A stretch of 58,864 bases of DNA, counting the filler. It is 24 parts of 24 records of this genome, joined end to end, with 100 filler letters (N's around TTAATTAATTAA, not from the genome) between each part and the next. Parts side by side here need not be neighbours in the genome. Positions count along the whole stretch, not along the records: positions 21,539 to 23,722 come from SRR36015645_453704; 23 more parts are not named here. One strand, given 5' to 3'. Position 1 is the first letter of the stretch. Each line of letters opens with the position of its first letter. The translations under genes and the position numbers were made by a program. Below, in pieces: positions 18,569 through 46,930 of the stretch. The notes beneath the pieces were generated by a model that searched no databases, was not told the origin of the DNA, and was given only the letters and a program-made list of their open reading frames with translations.

Positions 18569-21394
18569 TCCATTAACGACTTCTTACATGCAGGTCCATC
18601 ACTAATCAACGATGTCTTTGATATTTGCATAAGACACCGCGGTGACCCTGTAGCTATGACAGCCGATGTTAACAAGGCATTCTTGATGATTGGAATTGAA
18701 GAAGCCGATAGGGATTACTTAAGAATTCTATGGAAAGGTAAACAGTACCGTTTCACGCGTGTTCCATTTGGGCTCAATTGCAGTCCTTTTCTACTCATGG
18801 CAGTAGAGAAAACGCACTTACACAATGAATCTAAAGAGAAAGAAGTGTTGGCTTCCCTCTACAAGAATATGTACATGGATGATTTGGTAACAACTGCTCC
18901 AAATGAAGAAGCGGCTAAAAAATTAGCAAAAGAAGCACAAGATTCATTCAAACGAGCTGGAATGAATCTCAGAAAATGGGCATGCAACAAACCATCTCTA
19001 CAGGAAGTGATTCCAAAAGAAAATTTCTCAAAAGTTGGTGAATGGCATAAGGTACTTGGTACAGAATGGTCAGTAGAATCTGATAACATTAGGATATGCA
19101 CTCAAGATATGTATAACCCAGAATTCACAAAAAGAAATATACTATCAGCAATTGCTCAGATTTACGATATTTTGGGATTAGCTTCTCCCTTTACAATCAA
19201 GGCAAAAATGCTTCTACAAGAATGCTGGAACAGAAAGTTATCCTGGGATCAAGAGCTACCGAGCGATTTGAGGGACAAATTTCATGTTTGGATTCAACAA
19301 CTTAATCAATTGAAACATGTGTTGTTTCCAAGGTTTATCTTAGATCAACGTTCAGCTGGACTACAAATACATGCGTTCTGCGACGCAAGTAAACAAGCTT
19401 ACGCTGCTTGTATTTACGTACGTTATGTTGACGATGTTGGACAAGTTCAAACACATCTTTTAGCTGCTAAAAGCCGAGTAGCTCCCGTCAAGACACAGTC
19501 ACTACCACGTTTAGAATTGTTAGGAGCATTATTGGCAGCAAGATTAACAAAAAGAATTAACGATGCACTGCAAGTTGTCCATGTGGACATTTTATATTGG
19601 ACGGATTCAATGATTGTCTTAAGTTGGTTAAACGGCGACCAAGGAAAATGGAAAACCTTCATTCAAAACAGAACTCAAAACATATTGGAAATATCAAAGG
19701 CGGAACAGTGGAAACATTGTCCAGGACATCTCAATGCAGCCGACCTACCAAGCAGAGGCTGTAGTATCAACCAACTAAACTGTGAAACATGGAAAAATGG
19801 TCCTTCATGGTTAAAATTGGATCCTGTCAACTGGCCAAATAATACCAATCCTCAATCAAATTCCGGTGCAGGTTCCGAAGAAAATCGTGAGTTGAAATCA
19901 ACATCAACAGTTCAACTAGTACAAACTAAAGATTTGAGTGTATGTGACACAATAATCGATTTGTCAAAAGTCAGCGAACTAAACAAAGCAATGAGAATAT
20001 TAACATATGTACTAAGATTTGTACATAATTCTAGAGGTAACAGTAAAAGAACAGGTCCCTTAAAGCTAGAAGAAATGACAAAATCCGAAAATCTAATTAT
20101 CGGTAAAATTCAGAAACACTACTTCTCAAATGAAAGTCGAGATTTGAAATCAAAGGGCAAAGTGCATAAGAGTTCAAGTATTGCTTCGTTAGACCCAGTG
20201 TTAATTAATGGATTGATTTGTATAAAAGGCCGCTTGCAACATGGTATGTACGATAGACACCCGATTATCCTTCCGAGAAAGACAAGATTTAACGAGTTGA
20301 TTATAACAAAATATCACAACAATCTGATGCATGCCGGTGTTGAACATGTACTTGCAGAAATCCGAAATAAATATTGGATAATTTCTGGTCGTACAGAAAT
20401 AAAACAGATAAAAAGAAAATGTGTCACGTGCAATAGACATGAAGGCAGACCATTCACTCAAACTTCTGGGCCACTCCCAGCTGACCGAGTCAATCCAGCA
20501 AATCCCTTCGAAGTGACAGGTTTGGACCATTGTGGACCAATGTTTTGCTCTGACAGCAACAACAAGCTATATATTGCCATTTTTACATGTGCGGTCATAC
20601 GTGCTGTTCATTTAGAGCTAGTCGATTCCATGAACAAAGATGACACAAGGCTTTGTATTCAGAGATTTGTTAGTAGAAGAGGTGTTCCTCGTGTGATCTA
20701 CTCTGATAACGCAAAAACTTTCAAGAGCATTTCAGAAGATACTAAATCAAATAACTACCTTCACGAAAACAACATAAAGTGGAAATTCATCGCTCCAGGA
20801 GCTCCATGGTGGGGTGGATTCTGGGAACGTCTTGTACGTTCGATTAAAGTTCCACTCAGAAAAGTTTTCGGAAAGGCTACGTTGACTAAAACAGAACTTT
20901 CTACCGCATTATGTCAAGTAGAGGCCATGGTCAATTCGCGTCCGCTCACACACAACAGTGACAACATAGATGATCTGGAAGTACTGACTCCGGGACATTT
21001 CTTGATCGGAAGAAGCTTAACAGCGTACCCAGACAACATAACCGAAAAAGACAATAATCTTGTCAAACTGAACAAAAAGCGTAAAGCTGACCTTAGTGAC
21101 ATCTGGAATAGATGGCAAACCGAATATTTACAAACGCTAAGGAAAACTGTTTATATCGAAAATAATAAGTCACCTAAATGTGATCAAATCGTTTTGATTA
21201 AAGAAAAGTCACCAAGGATGACATGGAAACTGGGAAAAATTGTCAGGCTAATCCCAGGCCGTGACAATGTCGTTAGATCTGTCGAACTTAAAACAAAAGA
21301 TGCCAACATTATAAGGCCTATCCAATTACTGATTCCACTAGAGGTGGAAACGGTAGTTCACCAAAGCATGCAAACATTATTGAGTAATGAATAA
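18569..21394 (+). mobile_element. Second BEL/Pao pol: RT - RNase H - integrase; in-frame TAA at 18566-18568 just upstream
   Basis: SINDFLHAGP, ADVNKAF, VPFGLNCSPF, YMDD, FCDASKQAY, PRLEL, WTDS, NAADLPSRG, GLDHCGP, SDN, WGGFWER. Confidence 0.94.
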
Positions 21395-21538: not shown

Positions 21539-22164
21539 CAATGTGAGTCTGCCTCGCATAGGCCAAGCTCTATCATATCTTGCTCCAAATAATCAAACTG
21601 TTCCAAGCTAGAATATTTTGACCCTTCAGGGGGTATGTAAACTAAACCGCATGTTAGAGGCAAACCAAGAATATTTTCGTCTAATCTACACCATAAAATG
21701 AAATCTGTTTTTGAATTAAGAACAGTGATAAATTTGTTATATTTAGCTTTAACAAGTAATGCCACACCACCTGATTTACGTTTATATTTTTTTCTATTCA
21801 CACTATAAAATGTATATTCTTTCAAATCAATAGAATCACTGTCGAATTCATCCAGTTTTGTTTCCGTTAGCCATATGAAGTCATAACTTCTGATGTATTC
21901 CTCGAAATCAGGTGACTTTAGCTTACCCTGTAATCCACAAATGTTTAATAACAAAAAGTTAACATGATGGTGATTTTTTCCTGGGATACAATACGAATGC
22001 TCGTTAGTTATATTTAGACCAGGTGCTGTGCTCTGGTAGACCCTATCCGCGCCCCCCCTGGTATGCCCCGCAGAATGTATACCCCTCCGTGACACATCAA
22101 AAGGGGCGCCCACAGTGCCCGTCAAAGCACAGCCACCAACTAAATTCTGTCTTCCATGATTATG
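21539..22164 (-). CDS. LINE ORF2 N-terminus (APE endonuclease), no ATG before the domain, in frame with ORF1
   Basis: LLNICGL, WLTETKL, KSGGVALLV and VYIPP. The frame is open from the codon right after the ORF1 TAG. Confidence 0.88.
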
Positions 22165-23169
22165 CTATACACAATAATTTCCTAGACCAAGTTCCTTATA
22201 ATCCGGTATTAAACCAATCTTACGCAGATCCTCCGGTGATGAGATTTTTACCTTATCTGGTTGATTAGGGCGTTTTTTTAGCATGCACAATATTTCTCCA
22301 TCTCTGGTATATACATACTCTACTTTGTTTGATTTCTTCGCAGCATGTAACATTTTGAAACGTAGACTTGTTAGGTCCTCGTTTATGTACAGATTACTCT
22401 TGCTTACATTGTTCTTTGATTTTAATTTATGTTTGTTTTTCATAATCTGCACCTTATTTGAGCAGGAAGAAAGTTGGACAAAGACAGGTCTTGCTTTGTC
22501 CCCCTTCCTCCCCGCTCTGTAGCAGGTAGTGATATCATCGTTAGAAATTGTGACATTAATACTGTCACAAATGCTGATTATTTTAACTTTAAGTTCCTCA
22601 GCCTTTTCTCCCTCACCATCACCCTCCACACCATAAAATCTTAGGTTACACGCCAGGCGATGTTGATCGTTTTTATCATTACTAAGGTGTAGTAACAGTA
22701 ATTGACTTTGCATTGCAGTTATGGTATTGGATAAATCCTCCTTAATTTCACTGCTGGTACTGGTATTTGGTCTATTCTCAAGCTTTACAACTTTGGACTC
22801 GATTGTCTCGAGCCTTACATTTATTTCGGAAAGGTTATCATTTGTTTGTTTAATGAAGGTCAAGACCTTTTTCAAACCAGGTATTGCTTTTTGACAAAAT
22901 TTACAGCTCCATAGAACACCCATAGCATCAGCATTTTCTTTAAGCCAATTATACTGGTCCATGGTGACACCAGTGCACTCAAGACAAACCCATTCCTCAC
23001 ACAGATCGCAGAAGAGTGCCTTGGTGTCATCATGGACATTCTTTTCACATTCTTTACATGGATATTCATCAGACTTACCTCTTTGCTTCTTCGACTCTAC
23101 CTGCGGTGAATTTCCATCTGAAAGATTCCGTTTAGGCCTATTTTCTCCACTTTTCTCAGTCTGACTCAT
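22165..23169 (-). CDS. LINE ORF1p with N-terminal PHD-type finger, coiled coil and L1-type RRM/CTD
   Basis: CKEC..CDLCEEWVCLEC..WSCKFC finger; NLRFYGV, CYRAG, RPVFVQL, YINEDLT, YTRDGEI. Confidence 0.9.
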   Translation of the reverse strand: MSQTEKSGENRPKRNLSDGNSPQVESKKQRGKSDEYPCKECEKNVHDDTKALFCDLCEEWVCLECTGVTMDQYNWLKENADAMGVLWSCKFCQKAIPGLKKVLTFIKQTNDNLSEINVRLETIESKVVKLENRPNTSTSSEIKEDLSNTITAMQSQLLLLHLSNDKNDQHRLACNLRFYGVEGDGEGEKAEELKVKIISICDSINVTISNDDITTCYRAGRKGDKARPVFVQLSSCSNKVQIMKNKHKLKSKNNVSKSNLYINEDLTSLRFKMLHAAKKSNKVEYVYTRDGEILCMLKKRPNQPDKVKISSPEDLRKIGLIPDYKELGLGNYCV

Positions 23170-24123
23170 ATTTCCTTAAATATACGCACAAACTTTTGAT
23201 AAGTAAAGTGCACTTCGCGTCAAAAATTAGGCCATAAACTGTAAGCTTACATAAGGAAGGCCTATGTCTATGAGCTCCTTTGAATTCATGCAATAACAAG
23301 GGCTATTGTGGTAACAACAAATATTACAAGAATAAGAAATACAAGAATAAGAAAACACAGGGTATCACAAAGGCTAAGCTTAATGGTTACAAACAAATAA
23401 CGAGACTGGTTATTCTGGAGTTCTCTACCAACTTAACATGTTCTGATAAAACATAGGTAAGCTTTTACGCAGTTAACTAACAGTCGTAGGCAACATAGGC
23501 ATAGCAGGTGAGCATGGGCGTGGTAGTTCGAGTCAAGGATTACAAATGGCAATGAATGGCCCAGAGTACTTGTAAACTACAGAACTATAACTAAGTTAAA
23601 TAACACTGCGAATCACTGACTGCCACCGCTTAGCTAACGAATCGAGATTTCCTGTTGTACTAAAATGTTTGATCGTTGCACTAAAAATTAACATTTAGTC
23701 CATCGGCTAAATCGTCACTAATNNNNNNNNNNNNNNNNNNNNNNNNNNNNNNNNNNNNNNNNNNNNTTAATTAATTAANNNNNNNNNNNNNNNNNNNNNN
23801 NNNNNNNNNNNNNNNNNNNNNNCATTCATAAAACACGAAAATCAAACACTGCGGCGACACCCCCCAGTATTTACGCCCCTGAGAATAGCGGTGCCCTAAC
23901 GCAGTAGCATAACATCACCATCCCCTAGTATCGCCTATGCATGGATAATGACCGTGCCGCATGATCGTTGGCTGTTGCGTAGTTAAATGAATCATTGGCC
24001 ATTTGTATTATAGTTGTAGCTATAGTTATTCGAGAGCAGAAAACATTGAGAATGGCATTGTGGTTTCAATTAGACGGTGTTTCTAATATAAATACGCTTG
24101 AATAGGCCTACTGCTGCAGTATC

Positions 24124-25524
24124 ATGGGCGGCGGAGATTATTGCTGTGTCGCTGGGTGTAAAAATGATAGACGATATCAGGACAAACTTGTTAAGAGATC
24201 TCATGTCGAAAAAATGAGATGGCACGTATTTCCCAAGGATTCTGTTAACAGAGAGCATTGGATAAAACAAATTTCCAGAGGCTTAACTGATTTTGTCGTC
24301 GGAAAAGCTACAACTGTATGCAGCAATCATTTTGTTGATGGGCGGCCTACACGGGACAATCCATGGCCTACACTTTATCTTGTAGCTGCTGATCTAAAAA
24401 GAAAATCGCCCAAAAAAAGAAAACCCGCAGATCGAATATTTACACCAACGCCGAAAAGAAAACTGCAGGAAACAGAGGCAGGCCCTAGTGATGAGCCTAA
24501 AGAAACTGCTGAACCGCATTTAGATCATAGCGTGAAATGTGCCTTACAGTTTTGTCACTTAACTAAAGAGCATGACGTGCGGATGTATACAGGCTTGCCT
24601 TCGACCCGAAGTTTTCAAATGATTTTTGGTTGGGTGCAAGGAAAGGCAGCTGTCATGAATTACTGGAGGGGGGACGTCCAGACTGAGAAAGATATGGCAA
24701 CAAAAACTAATTTACTCGGTGAAATGTTTCCACAACATGCACAAGCGACTGCAAAACTAAAGCCTGGAACTCGAGGAAAACTGTCGCTAGAACAACAACT
24801 TTTGCTTGTGTTAATGAAACTACGTTGTGGTCTGACAACACACGATCTAGCATTTAGATTTGATGTTAGTGAAAGCACCATCAGCTCCATAGTTTTCACG
24901 TGGGTCAAACTTTTGTCGAAGGAGCTTGCATTTTTGATCATATGGCCCTCTCGTGAGGTGGTGAGAAAAAATTTGCCGTCAGTCTTTAAAGTGAAGTACA
25001 GGAAATGTGTTGCAATAATTGACTGTACCGAGTTCTTTGTCGAGAATCCTTCAAGTCTAGACATACATGCTACACTATACAGCGAGTACAAACATCACAC
25101 TACCGCGAAGGTTCTAATAGCCATTACACCGTGGGGATCTATAAGCTACAAGTCACAGGCATATGGTGGGCGAGCAAGTGACAAATATATTTCGGATGCG
25201 TGTGATCTTGTGAAGTATTTGCTCCCTGGCGATGAACTTATGGCAGATAGGGGCTTTAAAATACAAGACTTGCTGGCGTATACTGGGGCATCATTAACCA
25301 TACCACCTAGTTGCAGGTTTTCCCTGCCACATACAGAGTCACAAACATTGCAGACATCTCGAATAGCAAATGTTCGAATTTACGTGGAAATAGCTATTCG
25401 TAGGCTAAAGTGGTTCGGAATATTGAGCAAGGAACTGCACATTACGTTGCTCCCTCAGTTGGATGATATTCTCACAATATGCTGTGCTATAGTAAACCTC
25501 CATCCATCGTTTGTGAAAGATTAA
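24124..25524 (+). mobile_element. THAP-domain PIF/Harbinger-superfamily (ISL2EU-type) transposase, intact ORF
   Basis: THAP C2CH (CCVAGC..FP..W..VCSNHF..PTL), HTH (LVLMKLRCG..DLAFRF.VS.ST.S), DDE triad IIDCTE / MADRGF / RIYVE. Confidence 0.9.
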
Positions 25525-25963: not shown

Positions 25964-27890
25964 AGCTTACTGTGTTGGTGTACATTAGCTGGACGCATTT
26001 TATAATGAACGGTCCGAACCCAAAAGACTTCAAAACTGCTATGATGTATTTGTGGCTTATCCGATCAAAAGCCTTTTCTTGGTCTAATGCGAGCAATATT
26101 AGGTTGGTCTGTTCCTCATTGGCTTGAAAGAGTATGTCTCGTAGCAGATTTATGTTATCATGCATTTTTCGCCCCTCTATTCCGCAGGTTTGATCGGGAT
26201 GTACTATTGTCTGCATGACTTTTCGCATTCGTTGAGCTATCACCTTTGTAAAGACTTTGTAATCCGTATTGAGTAAGGATACCGGACGATAGTTTTTCAG
26301 AAACCTGTGATCTGCTTTCTTCTTTAATAGCAGTACAATAATAGCGATCCGTAACGATAATGGCAGCTCTGTCCCAGTTGATAAACATTCATTTAAAACC
26401 TCCACAAATGACTGTCCGAGAAGATTCCAAAAAACTTTATAGAATTCGTTGGAAATTCCGTCTGAGCCTGGAGACGTGTTGCTGCTGGCCTGCTTTAGGG
26501 CAATAGTGTATTCCTCAATCGTGAGCGGTGTTTCCAGTAACTCTCGTTGAGCTTCGGATATTTTTGGTATATCTCGAAGAATGGTATTAACTGCCTCATC
26601 TGATATTGCTTCTTCTTGGTATAGCTCGCTGTAGTAGGCAATGATATGGTTTCTGATACTCTCTTGGTTGTCTGTAGTAGTGCCATCTGGTAGTGTTAAG
26701 TTGCTGATGGAGTTTGATTTTGCGTTGTCTTTTTCTAATTGATAGAAGTAACGTGTGGATTTGTCTACTTCGTTGATGTGCTTAAATCTCGATCGAATGA
26801 GTGCACCGTGAGCTTTCTTTTTAAACATCTGGTTCAGTTGAGCTTTCTTTTCTTTGAATTGTTCATTCGTTTGTCTTGAATTAATCCCATCTTTAATAAG
26901 GTTATTGAGTTCCTCTTGTATTTGTCTTAGCATTAGTCTCTCGTCTCTGTTCTTTTTCCTTGAATATTGCACCGATATGCTCTTCACGTCTGCCTTGAAC
27001 ATCTCCCACCATTGGCCTAGCCGTCCCACGTAATTTGGCTTCTGACTTAACCAATAGTTAATGTAGTTCTCTATTATATCTTTATATTCCCGATCATCCA
27101 GCAACGAGTTATTTAACTTCCAACTCGAAAAAGCTCCAAATCGCTTTCTCCTCTTCGTGCCCTGTATTGATAAAACCACTGCGTCATGGTCCGATAGGCT
27201 GCAGGCTTCTATTTCGCATGTTCTTATGGTATTCTTTATCGCTTTGCTAACATATATCCTATCCAATCTGGCGCTGATGATGTTGTCGTTTCTTCGGTTT
27301 CTGTATGTATACTGTCTTTCATCTGCATGTGTGAGTCTCCAAATGTCCTTTAATTGAGTTTTGCTGACTACTTGTCTAAGTTTGTCTTGCAGCCGAGCGC
27401 GCCTTTCTGTTGTCCCATCGTGTCTGTCCAGGTTTGTTTGAAGTGTTACATTGAAATCTCCAATCAACATGAAATCCTCAATGCTGTTCTCGTCTCTATG
27501 CTTTATTAGCTTTTCCAGCGTTTCTAGAGCTTTTTGGTCATCTTGTGGCATGTAAATATTGTACGCACTATATAAAGTTCCTTGTATTTCATATTCCACG
27601 TACATCAGGTGTCCTTTGCGCAGCTCAACTACATTCTTCACATTGACTTCACTGTTCTTTTTAACGGCCAGTCCTACTCCTGAGAATCGGGTTGGGACTG
27701 AGAAAAAATAAAATTGGTATGGTAAAGAGCTCCAGAAGATTTTATCTGATGCTTGGTCGGCTGATATATTGGTCTCTTGCAGAAATACTATATCTGTGTT
27801 GTGTAAACTGATGTATTCAACAAATTGCTTTGCTCTTGTTTGCTGTGAGATTCCGTGAGTATTTATTGTAAGAATTATATGACTGGCCAT
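25964..27890 (-). mobile_element. L1/Tx1-clade LINE ORF2 (APE endonuclease + start of RT), 3'-truncated
   Basis: TINTHGI, FLQET, GDFN, RLDRIY, SDH, WKLN, SPGSDG, YRPVSLLNTDYK, DQEKAFD. Confidence 0.93.
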
Positions 27891-27912
27891 TATAATATTT
27901 TGTTAAGTCTTC

Positions 27913-36726: not shown

Positions 36727-36902
36727 ACAGCACTGGCTATTGTCAGAAGGGGGCGCACGTGCGCGCAACCTGTGTGCCCTCTTCTGACGATAGCCAGTGC
36801 TGTCATCGAGGCCACCAAACATGGAAAATGTAATTTGAAAAGTCCATTATTCATGTTCTAGGTATGACGAGATAGTCTCGTCGTTCGCAGTGAAAGGGTT
36901 AA
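36727..36902. mobile_element. Right end of a piggyBac-type MITE with a long internal palindrome
   Basis: Ends ...CGCAGTGAAAGGG|TTAA (36899-36902). Subterminal palindrome GACGAGA..TCTCGTC. A 32-bp imperfect inverted repeat lies at about 36727-36803. Confidence 0.6.
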
Positions 36903-45315: not shown

Positions 45316-45630
45316 TGCGTTTACCGGTATATTGCTGTTACATATAGTGTTGTTAGTGACGCTCTGGTATAAAGAAAGGCGTTTAATTGACATTTGGTCA
45401 TTGTAGTATTGCTTTTATTATATAGTCTGTTCATCAATATAGCCCTATATTGTAACGTGTAATTTACCCCCATAGTTTGTTACAGTTTTGTACAACTTAC
45501 TTTTGAATTTTTATATCGTATATATTTGCATTTTGTCTCGGTTTGTAATTGCTGTATATAGCTTTTTTTTCTGCAGCACACTGTATTCTTGTATTAGGCT
45601 TGTCTACTCGAAATTGAATAGTCTTAGTTA

Positions 45631-46930
45631 ATGAAAACTATTTTAAAATGTACCACGTGGAATGTGGATGGTTTAACAAACAAACTCGCTGATGACGACT
45701 TTCTCTCAAGAATCAAAGCTTTTGATATTGTCGGCCTAATTGAAACTTGGACATCACCCGAGGCACAACTTATTTTACCTGGGTATGCAGCAATTCATAA
45801 ATTTCGTAAAAGTAAACCAAATGCACGACGCAAATCTGGCGGCATTGTTTGTTTCTTCAAAGAAGAATACAAAAAGGGTGTCACGCATATCCCCAGTAAA
45901 AGTAATAATTTAATGTGGCTTTGTCTATCAAAAACCTTCTTCGGCTTTGATGAAAATATTTATTTATGCATCACATATATACCCCCCGCAGGTTCAAAGT
46001 ATCTTGAAGACACGTTTGAAATACTAGATAGTGAAATAAGCAAATTCTTCAGCAGAGGCCACATCGTACTAACAGGTGATACAAATTCTCGTACTGGTGA
46101 TCGTCATGATTTCATTGCCTCATCCAAAAATGACATCCACATTCCCAGTTTTAACTTCAACTTTCAGAGTAACCAAAGCGGCTCAACAAATATTTGTCAA
46201 AGAAATAACATGGACACTACTATAAATACTCATGGCAGAAAGCTCATAGACATTTGTATTAGCCAACAATTGCAAATTTTAAATGGCAGAACCCTAGGTG
46301 ATAGGCTAGGCACTTATACTTATTATTCACATAACGGAATGAGCCAAATAGATCACTGCTTAGCTACTACGGAGCTGATTCCCAAATTCTATTTTTTCCG
46401 TGTGCATGAGTTAAATATTTTATCACACCATTGCCAAATATCGTTTGGAGTTCAGTGCAAAATCAAAATGCAGCATAATCAAGAGCCTACGGTGACTACA
46501 AATCCACCCCCAAACAGGTTTGTTTGGGATCAAGAAGCTTCCGAAAAATTTGTTAATTATCTTCGAGGTGCTAAAATAGTAGACAAACTAGAAGAAATAG
46601 AAAGTACATGCAATAATCCAGAGCAAATAATAAATAATCACGTAGAAGCATTTTCAAATTTTCTTACGTCGGCGGCTAACACCTGCCTCAAATTAAAAAA
46701 GTTCACACCTTGTAACAAAAAGAAGCGCAAAACTTCACCCAAAAAACCTTGGTACACAAATGATTGTGATTCGGCTAAAAGAGAACTAAACCTATATGCA
46801 AAGCTACTGTCTCGGCATCCCTATGACAGATCGCTTAGTGTAGAATATCATTACAAGCTCAGGGCTTATAGGAAACTAATTAAGAAAACAAAACATGCCT
46901 ACAAACTAGAACTTATTCATAAACTAAACA
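45631..46930 (+). CDS. LINE ORF2 N-terminus (APE endonuclease and linker), 3'-truncated
   Basis: TWNVDGL, LIETW, KSGGI, YIPP, GDTNSRTG, ILNGR, IDH, SHH (for SDH), KPWY. Confidence 0.9.

Follow-up and report, generated by a model that had tools for sequence, protein, structure and literature searches.

For many years it has been asked how LINEs translate the second open reading frame (ORF2) of a bicistronic RNA, with most studies made on L1 and SART1. Mammalian L1 is bicistronic, with AUG-independent translation of ORF2 (PMC5009743, PMC5972666) and an inter-ORF spacer of 63 nucleotides (PMC5972666). In SART1, a telomeric LINE of the silkworm, translation of ORF2 is tied to what happens at the ORF1 stop and requires a downstream structure (PMC5972666). 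In the gag-pol of Moloney murine leukaemia virus, an ORF for a structural or RNA-binding protein ends in UAG and an enzyme ORF without a start codon follows in frame. The orf1 and orf2 of the Arabidopsis ATLN LINEs, described by Noma, Ohtsubo and Ohtsubo in DNA Research in 2000, are reportedly also in frame with an amber codon between them, and that study is said to have pointed to a possible downstream pseudoknot and to have proposed suppression. For Group 3 of the Paramecium non-LTR elements, readthrough of the ORF1 stop has been suggested from consensus sequences (PMC5405496). In the LTR element Tca2 of Candida albicans, gag and pol are separated by an in-frame stop, and a purine-rich tract of 8 nucleotides and a predicted pseudoknot are present, but according to a review no read-through was detected with a reporter of the junction (PMC7175516). 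Thus, readthrough need not occur even where such a layout is accompanied by a predicted structure.

The LINE analysed here is located on the minus strand of a contig of about 2.2 kb (SRR36015645_453704), which occupies positions 21539-23722 of the window, the whole stretch of 58,864 nucleotides of DNA that was analysed. Since the window is a chain of contigs of 2-3.5 kb joined via N44-TTAATTAATTAA-N44 linkers, the contigs flanking the element are not its genomic neighbours, and one of these linkers interrupts its ORF2 after 208 codons. The source is probably a marine invertebrate, and the element represents a young APE-type LINE copy, of which the 5´ part is present. Its 5´ untranslated region (23170..23722, minus strand) lies upstream of the first ORF1 ATG, reaches to the contig end and contains a TAA in frame with ORF1 at 23178-23176. 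A self-BLAST found no second copy of the element within the window, and a scan of the contig for tRNA-like genes with ARAGORN was negative. An independent DNA sequencing run (X1, with 0.05 of the sampled words) yielded one contig of 218 nucleotides, a 185-nucleotide piece of which matches 21873-22057 with three differences and no gaps. This match shows that the frame-critical site near the endonuclease is no assembly error and that the copy is young. The piece covers 21873-22057 only; outside of it lie the ORF1 stop and, of the hairpin described below, the loop and the 5´ arm. The sequencing-run search listed no RNA run as containing this stretch of the element.

ORF1 (22168..23169, minus strand) is an open frame of 334 codons with a PHD-like zinc finger, a coiled coil and an RRM plus C-terminal domain of the L1-ORF1p type. 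The N-terminus matched the PHD family PF00628 with an E-value of 4.6e-4 and 20.6 bits, which is under the Pfam cut-off of 24, and the coiled-coil matches were weak. A profile built from 31 ORF1 sequences matched the solved L1 ORF1p RRM chains 2ykp and 2yko (E 9.5e-6) and the RRM-only chain 2w7a (E 1.2e-5), and by this profile search ORF1 carries an L1-ORF1p-like RRM (Transposase_22 fold), homologous to the one of mammalian L1. The ORF1 homologues are 25-38% identical to the element. A word-based protein search with ORF1 returned 1468 candidates but none at E<=0.001, thus a near-identical family member is absent from that protein collection. An ORF1 composed of PHD, coiled coil and RRM/CTD is classed as type IIC in a survey of the Jockey superfamily and occurs there in the L2 and CR1 lineages (PMC4120745). 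Judged by its ORF1 domains alone, with the PHD match sub-threshold, the layout of the element would fit this type.

ORF1 ends with TGT GTA TAG, as the original prediction had it, and the UAG (22165..22167, minus strand) is followed by a C and lies in the frame of ORF2. Downstream of the stop this frame is open from 22164 to the contig end at 21541 and contains no ATG until deep within the endonuclease, both as predicted; the sole methionine is residue 533 of the protein P0001, which corresponds to codon 197 past the stop. In the stretch from the UAG to the endonuclease, the two other frames contain 4 and 5 stops. All 30 of the 30 ORF1 homologues terminate close to this site: their ends range from 1-2 residues ahead of the UAG of the element to no more than 13 alignment columns past it. 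This marks the UAG as the natural end of ORF1, as opposed to a nonsense mutation. The strong-context ATG announced seven nucleotides past the stop was also found (22157-22155, with A at -3 and G at +4). It lies +1 relative to the ORF2 frame and opens a five-codon ORF (MEDRI-stop, 22140..22157, minus strand), which ends within the base of the hairpin. Removal of the stop by splicing was rejected by eye, since the sole candidate acceptor, a CAG at 21983-21981, leads into the wrong frame and loses the codons E-H-S-Y described in the next paragraph.

ORF2 opens with an endonuclease of the apurinic/apyrimidinic type, of which the N-terminal part is present (21541..21962, minus strand) before the contig ends. 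It matched Exo_endo_phos with an E-value of 5.6e-4 and 20.2 bits, below the Pfam cut-off of 24.5 because the domain is only partial on the contig. A total of 4396 homologues were found at E<=1e-3, mostly matching the endonuclease part (the best are 36-49% identical), and the conserved motifs align, which places the element among the APE-type LINEs. The codons E-H-S-Y (21991..22002, minus strand), which precede the endonuclease in frame with ORF2 and lie upstream of any usable ATG, form the motif [D/E]-H-x-Y, conserved at the protein level. In the alignment of relatives, H-x-Y is present in the same columns in 10 of 24 sequences and is preceded by D or E in 8 of these. Directly ahead of the endonuclease lies an ATG (21963..21965, minus strand) that is one base off the ORF2 frame and runs into a stop after six codons; its bases are identical and gapless in the contig from the independent run X1. 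Many called ORF2 proteins of relatives start with a methionine directly before the endonuclease. In one of them, P0034, this methionine corresponds to a GTG in the DNA. Since at least one such start is a GTG, the called methionine starts are uninformative in either direction.

A locus search of metagenome_contigs with a six-sequence alignment gave 566 pattern matches and led to three confirmed loci (L001-L003), and the locus searches of viral_contigs and genome_contigs found none. The comparison at the DNA level rests on these three relatives. Among the four lineages, the endonucleases are 40-48% identical and the C-termini of ORF1 30-46%. The layout of a coding frame, a single in-frame UAG and an ORF2 in the same frame was found in all four, so that it is no accident of this copy. 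In L003, an ORF1 C-terminus homologous to that of the element is terminated by TAG, and the endonuclease follows in the same frame 37 codons on without an in-frame ATG. L002 shows the same layout with a linker of 69 codons and an intact ORF2 of 1214 codons that comprises APE and RT domains (RVT_1, E 3.4e-36). In L001, a 41-codon open frame and a TAG precede an intact ORF2 of 1181 codons in the same frame. The [D/E]-H-x-Y motif has the counterparts EHSI in L003, EHSI in L002 and DHSSY in L001. The endonuclease of L003, from whose locus P0034 derives, carries an internal frameshift, L002 is 5´-truncated, and what precedes the stop of L001 is a frame without similarity to ORF1.

The linkers between the stop and the endonuclease (73 codons in the element, 37 in L003, 69 in L002 and 34 in the remaining lineage) are not alignable. 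None of the four contains an in-frame stop, and the two other frames contain 4/5, 2/5, 6/8 and 2/6. Since the linkers differ in length, the frame must have been kept through many indels. Thus, the region past the UAG is under coding constraint and has no start of its own, except for L002, where an ATG only two codons away from the catalytic Asn is the sole in-frame ATG ahead of the endonuclease among the relatives. The original prediction had named a sense codon in place of the family stop as counter-evidence; none was found in the three relatives. The predicted UAG-C context stood in part: the UAG is kept in all four, whereas the following C is present in the element only and is a G in each of the three relatives. 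Nucleotide blocks adjoining the stop are conserved within pairs only. L001 and L002 are identical over the first seven bases past the stop, and the element and L003 share 10 of 11 bases of the block TCATGGAAGAC (22149..22159, minus strand; +6 to +16 after the stop) at the same offset, with a permutation p of 0.0004 for that pair, uncorrected, among 6 pairs tested. Two gene models of annotated Mytilus genomes with a fused ORF1-endonuclease (P0002 and P0013) were set aside as evidence for a sense codon because a predicted intron may skip the stop.

From this arrangement we lean, if only slightly, towards programmed readthrough of the UAG in the clade of the element, which would give an ORF1-ORF2 fusion. 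ORF2 has no start codon of its own in this clade and shares the frame of ORF1, from which a single UAG separates it. Most ribosomes would stop at the UAG and release the ORF1 protein; a minority would decode it via a near-cognate tRNA, cross the variable linker and yield the fusion, the LINE counterpart of retroviral Gag-Pol. Readthrough would in this way set the ratio of ORF1 to ORF2 products and would couple the enzyme to the particle of its own RNA. That readthrough occurs and that the fusion is the active form are what we infer here. The fusion would set the product ratio as in gammaretroviral gag-pol, and a purine-rich sequence just past the stop is found in the relatives of the element as it is there. 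In contrast to a gammaretrovirus, a LINE has no protease for cleaving the fusion. The original claim of a fusion was thus supported with respect to the in-frame UAG layout, which is kept in three relatives, but not with respect to the hairpin as its stimulator.

The hairpin itself was found as predicted, 134 nucleotides long and beginning 19 nucleotides past the UAG (22012..22145, minus strand), with all five listed stems in the minimum-energy fold. It is G+C-rich (0.57 versus 0.38 for the contig) and would be read in the ORF2 frame if the stop is passed. Folding of a 176-nucleotide sense stretch gave -74.1 kcal/mol (z -5.95, none of 200 shuffles as stable), compared with -42.8 kcal/mol for the opposite strand (z -1.25, 17 of 200 shuffles as stable). 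The 134 nucleotides alone reach -70.4 kcal/mol in sense and -40.6 in antisense orientation, and the fold has 52 pairs, 11 of them G-U. When the whole window was folded in sliding windows of 150 nucleotides, the hairpin ranked first in stability among 4240 window-strands, with -71.4 versus -59.1 for the next unrelated window and a G+C-corrected z of -5.08. Its 3´ arm (22012-22057) was recovered in the one contig of the DNA run. A G+C-rich hairpin on another contig (36727-36803) was rejected as a related copy, as it does not align with 22012-22145. Significant structure after the stop is absent in L001-L003 (z +0.04, +0.23 and -0.78), so that the conservation of the hairpin expected by the original prediction was not found. 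We conclude that the hairpin is a real structure of the sense RNA that was added to the linker in the family of the element only.

The position of the hairpin does not resemble that of known stimulators either. It starts at +20 after the stop and its G+C-rich core at +28, that is 19 and 27 nucleotides after it. According to a review (PMC13517186), the ribosome covers about 11-12 nucleotides past the A-site codon, and known stimulators lie about 8 nucleotides after the stop, where the gammaretroviral one, a pseudoknot, also starts. The structure of the element lies 19-27 nucleotides away and is unconserved; a 3´ stimulator at about 8 nucleotides after the stop was found neither in the element nor in its relatives. 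The claim that the hairpin drives readthrough is thus not borne out, since it is absent in all three relatives and too far from the stop to act like the known ones.

It seems probable to us that the hairpin acts at the RNA level in a way that has nothing to do with stop decoding, and that its location in a tolerant linker is incidental. It could serve in packaging, protein binding or RNA stability, or be a substrate for RNA editing or small-RNA pathways. This explanation would be compatible with either readthrough or reinitiation. The restriction of the hairpin to the family of the element fits this explanation, as does its spacing from the stop, which is unlike that of known stimulators (PMC13517186). 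A second sense-strand hairpin, with its core at 22460..22517 (minus strand), lies within the conserved coding sequence of ORF1. The 241-nucleotide region 22610-22370 folds with -68.3 kcal/mol and a z of -6.51 in sense, compared with a z of -1.79 on the opposite strand, and the homologous region of L003 is unstructured (z +1.36). The presence of such a sense-only structure inside ORF1 suggests that strong hairpins are a trait of this family and not linked to the stop. In addition, the pairs of the post-stop hairpin comprise 11 G-U versus 3 A-C mismatches (binomial one-sided p ~0.03), which is compatible with the sense RNA being under selection or undergoing A-to-I editing.

Three observations speak against a hairpin unrelated to the stop. 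The ORF2 frame is stop-free across the hairpin, whereas both other frames have stops inside, so that translation, at the least, constrains it. Its start lies 3 nucleotides beyond the conserved 11-nucleotide block. A search of Rfam (E<=10) gave no family match, with only chance-level microRNA-like rows, the best of 16.2 bits versus a gathering score of 93. Our best guess, though a doubtful one, is that the hairpin affects events after the stop, for example by blocking scanning 40S subunits but not elongating ribosomes, or by pausing ribosomes that have read through. Otherwise, it would have another role at the RNA level, jointly with the hairpin inside ORF1.

Instead of readthrough, ORF1 translation might terminate at the UAG and be followed by an AUG-independent restart at a non-AUG codon of the linker, yielding separate proteins, with the hairpin perhaps holding the post-termination subunit near the restart site. 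This is conceivable because the ORF2 of the element is without an AUG and a hairpin of -70 kcal/mol lies 19 nucleotides past the stop, and there are precedents: L1 ORF2 translation is AUG-independent and coupling in SART1 needs a downstream structure (PMC5972666, PMC5009743). Since the ORF2 of L1 is translated by unconventional, AUG-independent reinitiation, the lack of an AUG is no proof of readthrough. However, reinitiation needs no shared frame, which is why we favour readthrough. Going upstream from the endonuclease, the first in-frame stop in each of the four lineages is the very one that terminates the preceding frame, and by our own arithmetic the chance of a shared frame in the three relatives is about (1/3)^3. 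For L1, no requirement for a shared frame is reported, whereas such a frame is kept in each of the four lineages of this clade. Moreover, the hairpin is missing in the three relatives. The AUG of SART1 overlaps the stop (UAAUG), whereas the element has no in-frame AUG for 197 codons; the AUG nearest to its stop (+8) is out of frame (+1) and opens the five-codon ORF. A restart codon of the SART1/calicivirus type, at or near the stop and in the ORF2 frame, was thus not found as far as AUG is concerned. Taken together, we consider a restart unlikely.

It is highly improbable that the element is a dead copy or artefact in which ORF2 once started at the ATG at 21965-21963 and a one-base indel shifted the frame, leaving an open frame by chance: this ATG adjoins a T5 run just ahead of the endonuclease, one base off frame, and several called relatives begin with a methionine 6-7 residues before the conserved Asn, but the independent DNA run has identical gapless bases, V-N before the T run matches the closest relative P0004 with E-H-S-Y upstream in the same frame, three relatives are likewise AUG-less and in frame, and 73 stop-free codons face 4 and 5 stops in the other frames.

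Among the LINEs with a comparable layout, the ATLN elements are plant elements of the L1 clade, unlike the element described here. The Paramecium Group 3 elements belong to another LINE clade and to a ciliate host with a variant genetic code. In view of the suggestion made for Paramecium (PMC5405496), the original statement that no LINE case is described was too strong. For animals, we found no description of readthrough of a LINE ORF1 stop in the literature searched, which mostly comprised sources other than subscription journals. A further-reaching scenario appears rather unlikely, in which an animal LINE clade makes its endonuclease and reverse transcriptase solely as ORF1-ORF2 fusions by readthrough of a conserved UAG, and in which the hairpin of this one family tunes readthrough from an unusual distance, for instance by halting scanning post-termination subunits but not elongating ribosomes, as the first structured recoding element of a LINE.

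If readthrough is indeed used, a Gag-Pol-like fusion would be a simpler and testable answer to the question of how LINE ORF2 is translated, and one that fixes the ratio of ORF1 to ORF2. The fusion could also explain cis-preference, as it would make the enzyme a part of the ORF1 particle to which it belongs. Annotation pipelines that require an ATG for ORF2 would call such elements dead. The strong sense-RNA structures in the family of the element, that is both hairpins, merit probing themselves. Readthrough has already been suggested for LINEs of ciliates, and the clade of this element would be an animal case.

The LINE copy is confined to contig 21539-23722. On its minus strand, ORF1 starts with an ATG at 23169 and its last codons read TGT GTA TAG, the stop occupying 22167-22165. 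ORF2 lies in the same frame, which stays open from 22164 until the contig ends at 21541; from the UAG up to the endonuclease, the other two frames contain 4 and 5 stops. The sole methionine of the ORF2 frame is codon 197 after the UAG, within the endonuclease, and an out-of-frame ATG in strong context, 7 nt after the UAG, opens the reading frame MEDRI-stop. The original prediction had described the single ORF1-UAG-ORF2 frame, the first ORF2-frame ATG deep in the endonuclease and the MEDRI-stop frame, and this observation was confirmed in full.

The window (1-58864, 58,864 bases) does not represent one stretch of chromosome: about 24 contigs, each 2.0-3.5 kb long, are strung together in it, with junctions consisting of 44 N + TTAATTAATTAA + 44 N. 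Gene order across the N linkers is therefore meaningless, and the sequences flanking the LINE copy are uninformative about it because they belong to other contigs. Nearly every contig carries a long transposon-like reading frame. Inspection of other contigs by eye showed a retrovirus-like pol that includes integrase, a frame combining THAP and transposase, and the beginnings of two further LINE ORF2; the frames noted lie at 18569-21394 (+), 24106-25524 (+), 25965-27902 (-) and 45628-46929 (+), and both of these further ORF2 appear to have an ATG just before the endonuclease.

ORF1 gave a PHD-like finger match with a score under Pfam's cut-off and weak coiled-coil matches, and a profile of ORF1 and its 30 homologues matched the solved RRM of L1 ORF1p (E 9.5e-6). 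The ORF1 layout is type IIC in a survey of the Jockey superfamily and occurs in L2 and CR1 lineages according to that survey (PMC4120745). The linker, meaning the codons from the UAG to the endonuclease, is followed by coding sequence for the N-terminal portion of an APE endonuclease. With the readthrough translation as query, an exhaustive profile search returned 4396 proteins at E<=0.001; few of the relatives are named and these are Mytilus gene models, thus the host is probably a marine invertebrate.

The UAG is where ORF1 normally ends, rather than a nonsense mutation that interrupted a formerly continuous frame, since all 30 aligned ORF1 homologues end between 1-2 residues before our last residue and at most 13 columns beyond it, and in all of them the end is preceded by the motif P-D-D-L-F-K-x-G ... 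L-G-L.

Scanning metagenome contigs with a six-sequence alignment gave 566 pattern matches, from which three related loci, L001-L003, were confirmed. In L003, an ORF1 C-terminus homologous to ours is followed by TAG and, after 37 codons in the same frame and with no in-frame ATG, by the endonuclease. L002 has the same layout with a 69-codon linker and an intact ORF2 of 1214 codons with APE and RT domains, in which the only in-frame ATG is located two codons upstream of the catalytic Asn. In L001, a 41-codon open frame without resemblance to ORF1 ends in TAG, and an intact 1181-codon ORF2 follows in the same frame. This comparison at the DNA level rests on three relatives, of which L003 has a frameshift in the endonuclease and L002 is 5'-truncated. 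In L003 the frame of the endonuclease is interrupted after V-Y-I-P-P at ~1190-1240 and resumes in another frame; L003 is therefore a slightly decayed copy. In the L002 linker (470-580), two similar copies of a stretch encoding T-D-[S/T]-D-G-P were seen by eye, which looks like a frame-preserving duplication.

The stop codon is UAG in all four elements, and the shared frame contains no stop in any of the linkers, which have 4 and 5 (ours), 2 and 5, 6 and 8, and 2 and 6 stops in the other two frames. Since the linkers vary in length (73, 37, 69 and 34 codons) and are not alignable, and the lineages have diverged (identity of only 40-48% in the endonuclease and 30-46% at the ORF1 ends), many indels must have passed through the linkers, yet the frame between stop and ORF2 was kept. 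In addition, going upstream from the endonuclease, the first stop met in frame is in all four lineages the terminator, as continued elongation through the stop would predict. The in-frame UAG is thus conserved as a design, and we lean towards reading it as a sign of an ORF1-ORF2 fusion made by readthrough. The main rival, AUG-independent reinitiation, is unlikely in our estimation: a non-AUG restart needs an open frame only from the restart codon onward and requires no relation to the ORF1 frame. On the other side, L1 ORF2 is translated without need of its own AUG according to published work. Tca2 of Candida likewise counts against deducing readthrough from layout: it has an in-frame stop, a purine-rich tract and a predicted pseudoknot, and its reporter gave no read-through according to a review (PMC7175516). 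A search of sequencing runs found the stretch of the LINE copy in no RNA run.

A copy-specific indel displacing an ORF2 start ATG would explain an ATG at 21965-21963, just before the endonuclease and one base out of the ORF2 frame, but is rejected because an independent DNA-run contig (another copy or allele, since it diverges beyond 21873) matches 21873-22057 gap-free with three differences, and the ORF2-frame residues before this ATG (V-N, and E-H-S-Y further up) match those of relatives. The initial M of relatives' called ORF2 proteins does not point to an ATG: P0034, one such protein, starts M-N-F-I-S where the L003 DNA reads GTG AAT TTC.

Two further features would also fit readthrough. 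A conserved peptide motif, [D/E]-H-x-Y, is located 12-20 residues upstream of the endonuclease in the ORF2 frame (window 21991-22002, L003 ~804-815, L002 ~569-580); H-x-Y is present in ours and in 10 of 24 aligned relatives, and the counterparts in the loci are EHSI (L003), EHSI (L002) and DHSSY (L001). Directly 3' of the stop, the nucleotide sequence is conserved pairwise: our element and L003 agree at 10 of the 11 positions from +6 to +16 (raw p 0.0004 by shuffling, one of six pairs tested), and the first seven bases are identical in L001 and L002.

The long hairpin favouring the coding strand, as originally predicted, was recovered at 22145-22012. The surrounding 176 nt fold with -74.1 kcal/mol in sense (z -5.95, 0 of 200 shuffles as good) and with -42.8 kcal/mol on the opposite strand (z -1.25); the 134-nt hairpin alone reaches -70.4 kcal/mol in sense versus -40.6 kcal/mol in antisense. 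When the whole window was folded in sliding 150-nt segments, the hairpin ranked first in stability among 4240 window-strands and also deviated most once G+C was corrected for (z -5.08). Its 52 pairs include 11 G-U, against 3 A-C among the internal mismatches (one-sided binomial p ~0.03), an excess that lends modest support to pairing that matters in the sense RNA. A second copy in the family, the independent DNA-run contig, confirms the 3' arm only. Another contig opens with a G+C-rich inverted repeat at 36727-36803 (two 32-nt arms, 91% complementary, with 13 nt between them), and a long reading frame begins ~180 nt further downstream; this repeat shows no alignment with the hairpin.

Structure in the 139 nt from the stop gave z +0.04 (L003), +0.23 (L002) and -0.78 (L001) versus -3.70 in ours; the hairpin is real but outside the shared design of the four elements. 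Set against L003, it resembles an insert of ~134 nt, separated by 3 nt from the preceding 11-nt block that the two elements share and by 9 nt from the E-H-S codons downstream. It preserves the ORF2 frame and has no stop in it, while each of the other two frames contains stops there. The entry channel holds ~11-12 nt past the A-site codon and known stimulators lie ~8 nt after the stop, according to a review (PMC13517186). The base of the hairpin begins 19 nt and its G+C-rich core 27 nt after the stop, so that a ribosome would not have reached the structure while decoding the UAG. The hairpin is thus too distant to act on readthrough as the known stimulators do, and it has no equivalent in the three relatives. 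Another sense-only structure is located in conserved ORF1 coding sequence at 22610-22370 (-), with -68.3 kcal/mol and z -6.51 versus -1.79 on the other strand and a core hairpin at ~22517-22460 located on the conserved R-P-V-F-V codons; L003 has no such structure in the homologous part (z +1.36). This LINE family thus seems prone to strong hairpins in its sense RNA. They might serve to hold back scanning subunits, to pause ribosomes, to bind a protein or as a substrate for editing. The readthrough originally proposed is supported in part: the in-frame UAG stands, conserved in four of four lineages, and the hairpin is a sense-RNA structure specific to this family, its putative link to the stop being unproven.

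Gag-Pol stop-codon readthrough is textbook knowledge for gammaretroviruses, and Arabidopsis ATLN elements reportedly have an in-frame amber codon with a proposed pseudoknot. For LINEs, a literature search covering few subscription journals and no supplements found only the suggestion, made from consensus sequences, of readthrough in Group 3 non-LTR elements of Paramecium (PMC5405496), and none for animal LINEs or L2/CR1. The terms 'stop codon', 'in-frame' and 'readthrough' do not occur in the ORF1-type survey of L2/CR1 lineages (PMC4120745). The conserved in-frame UAG bears on how LINEs express ORF2.
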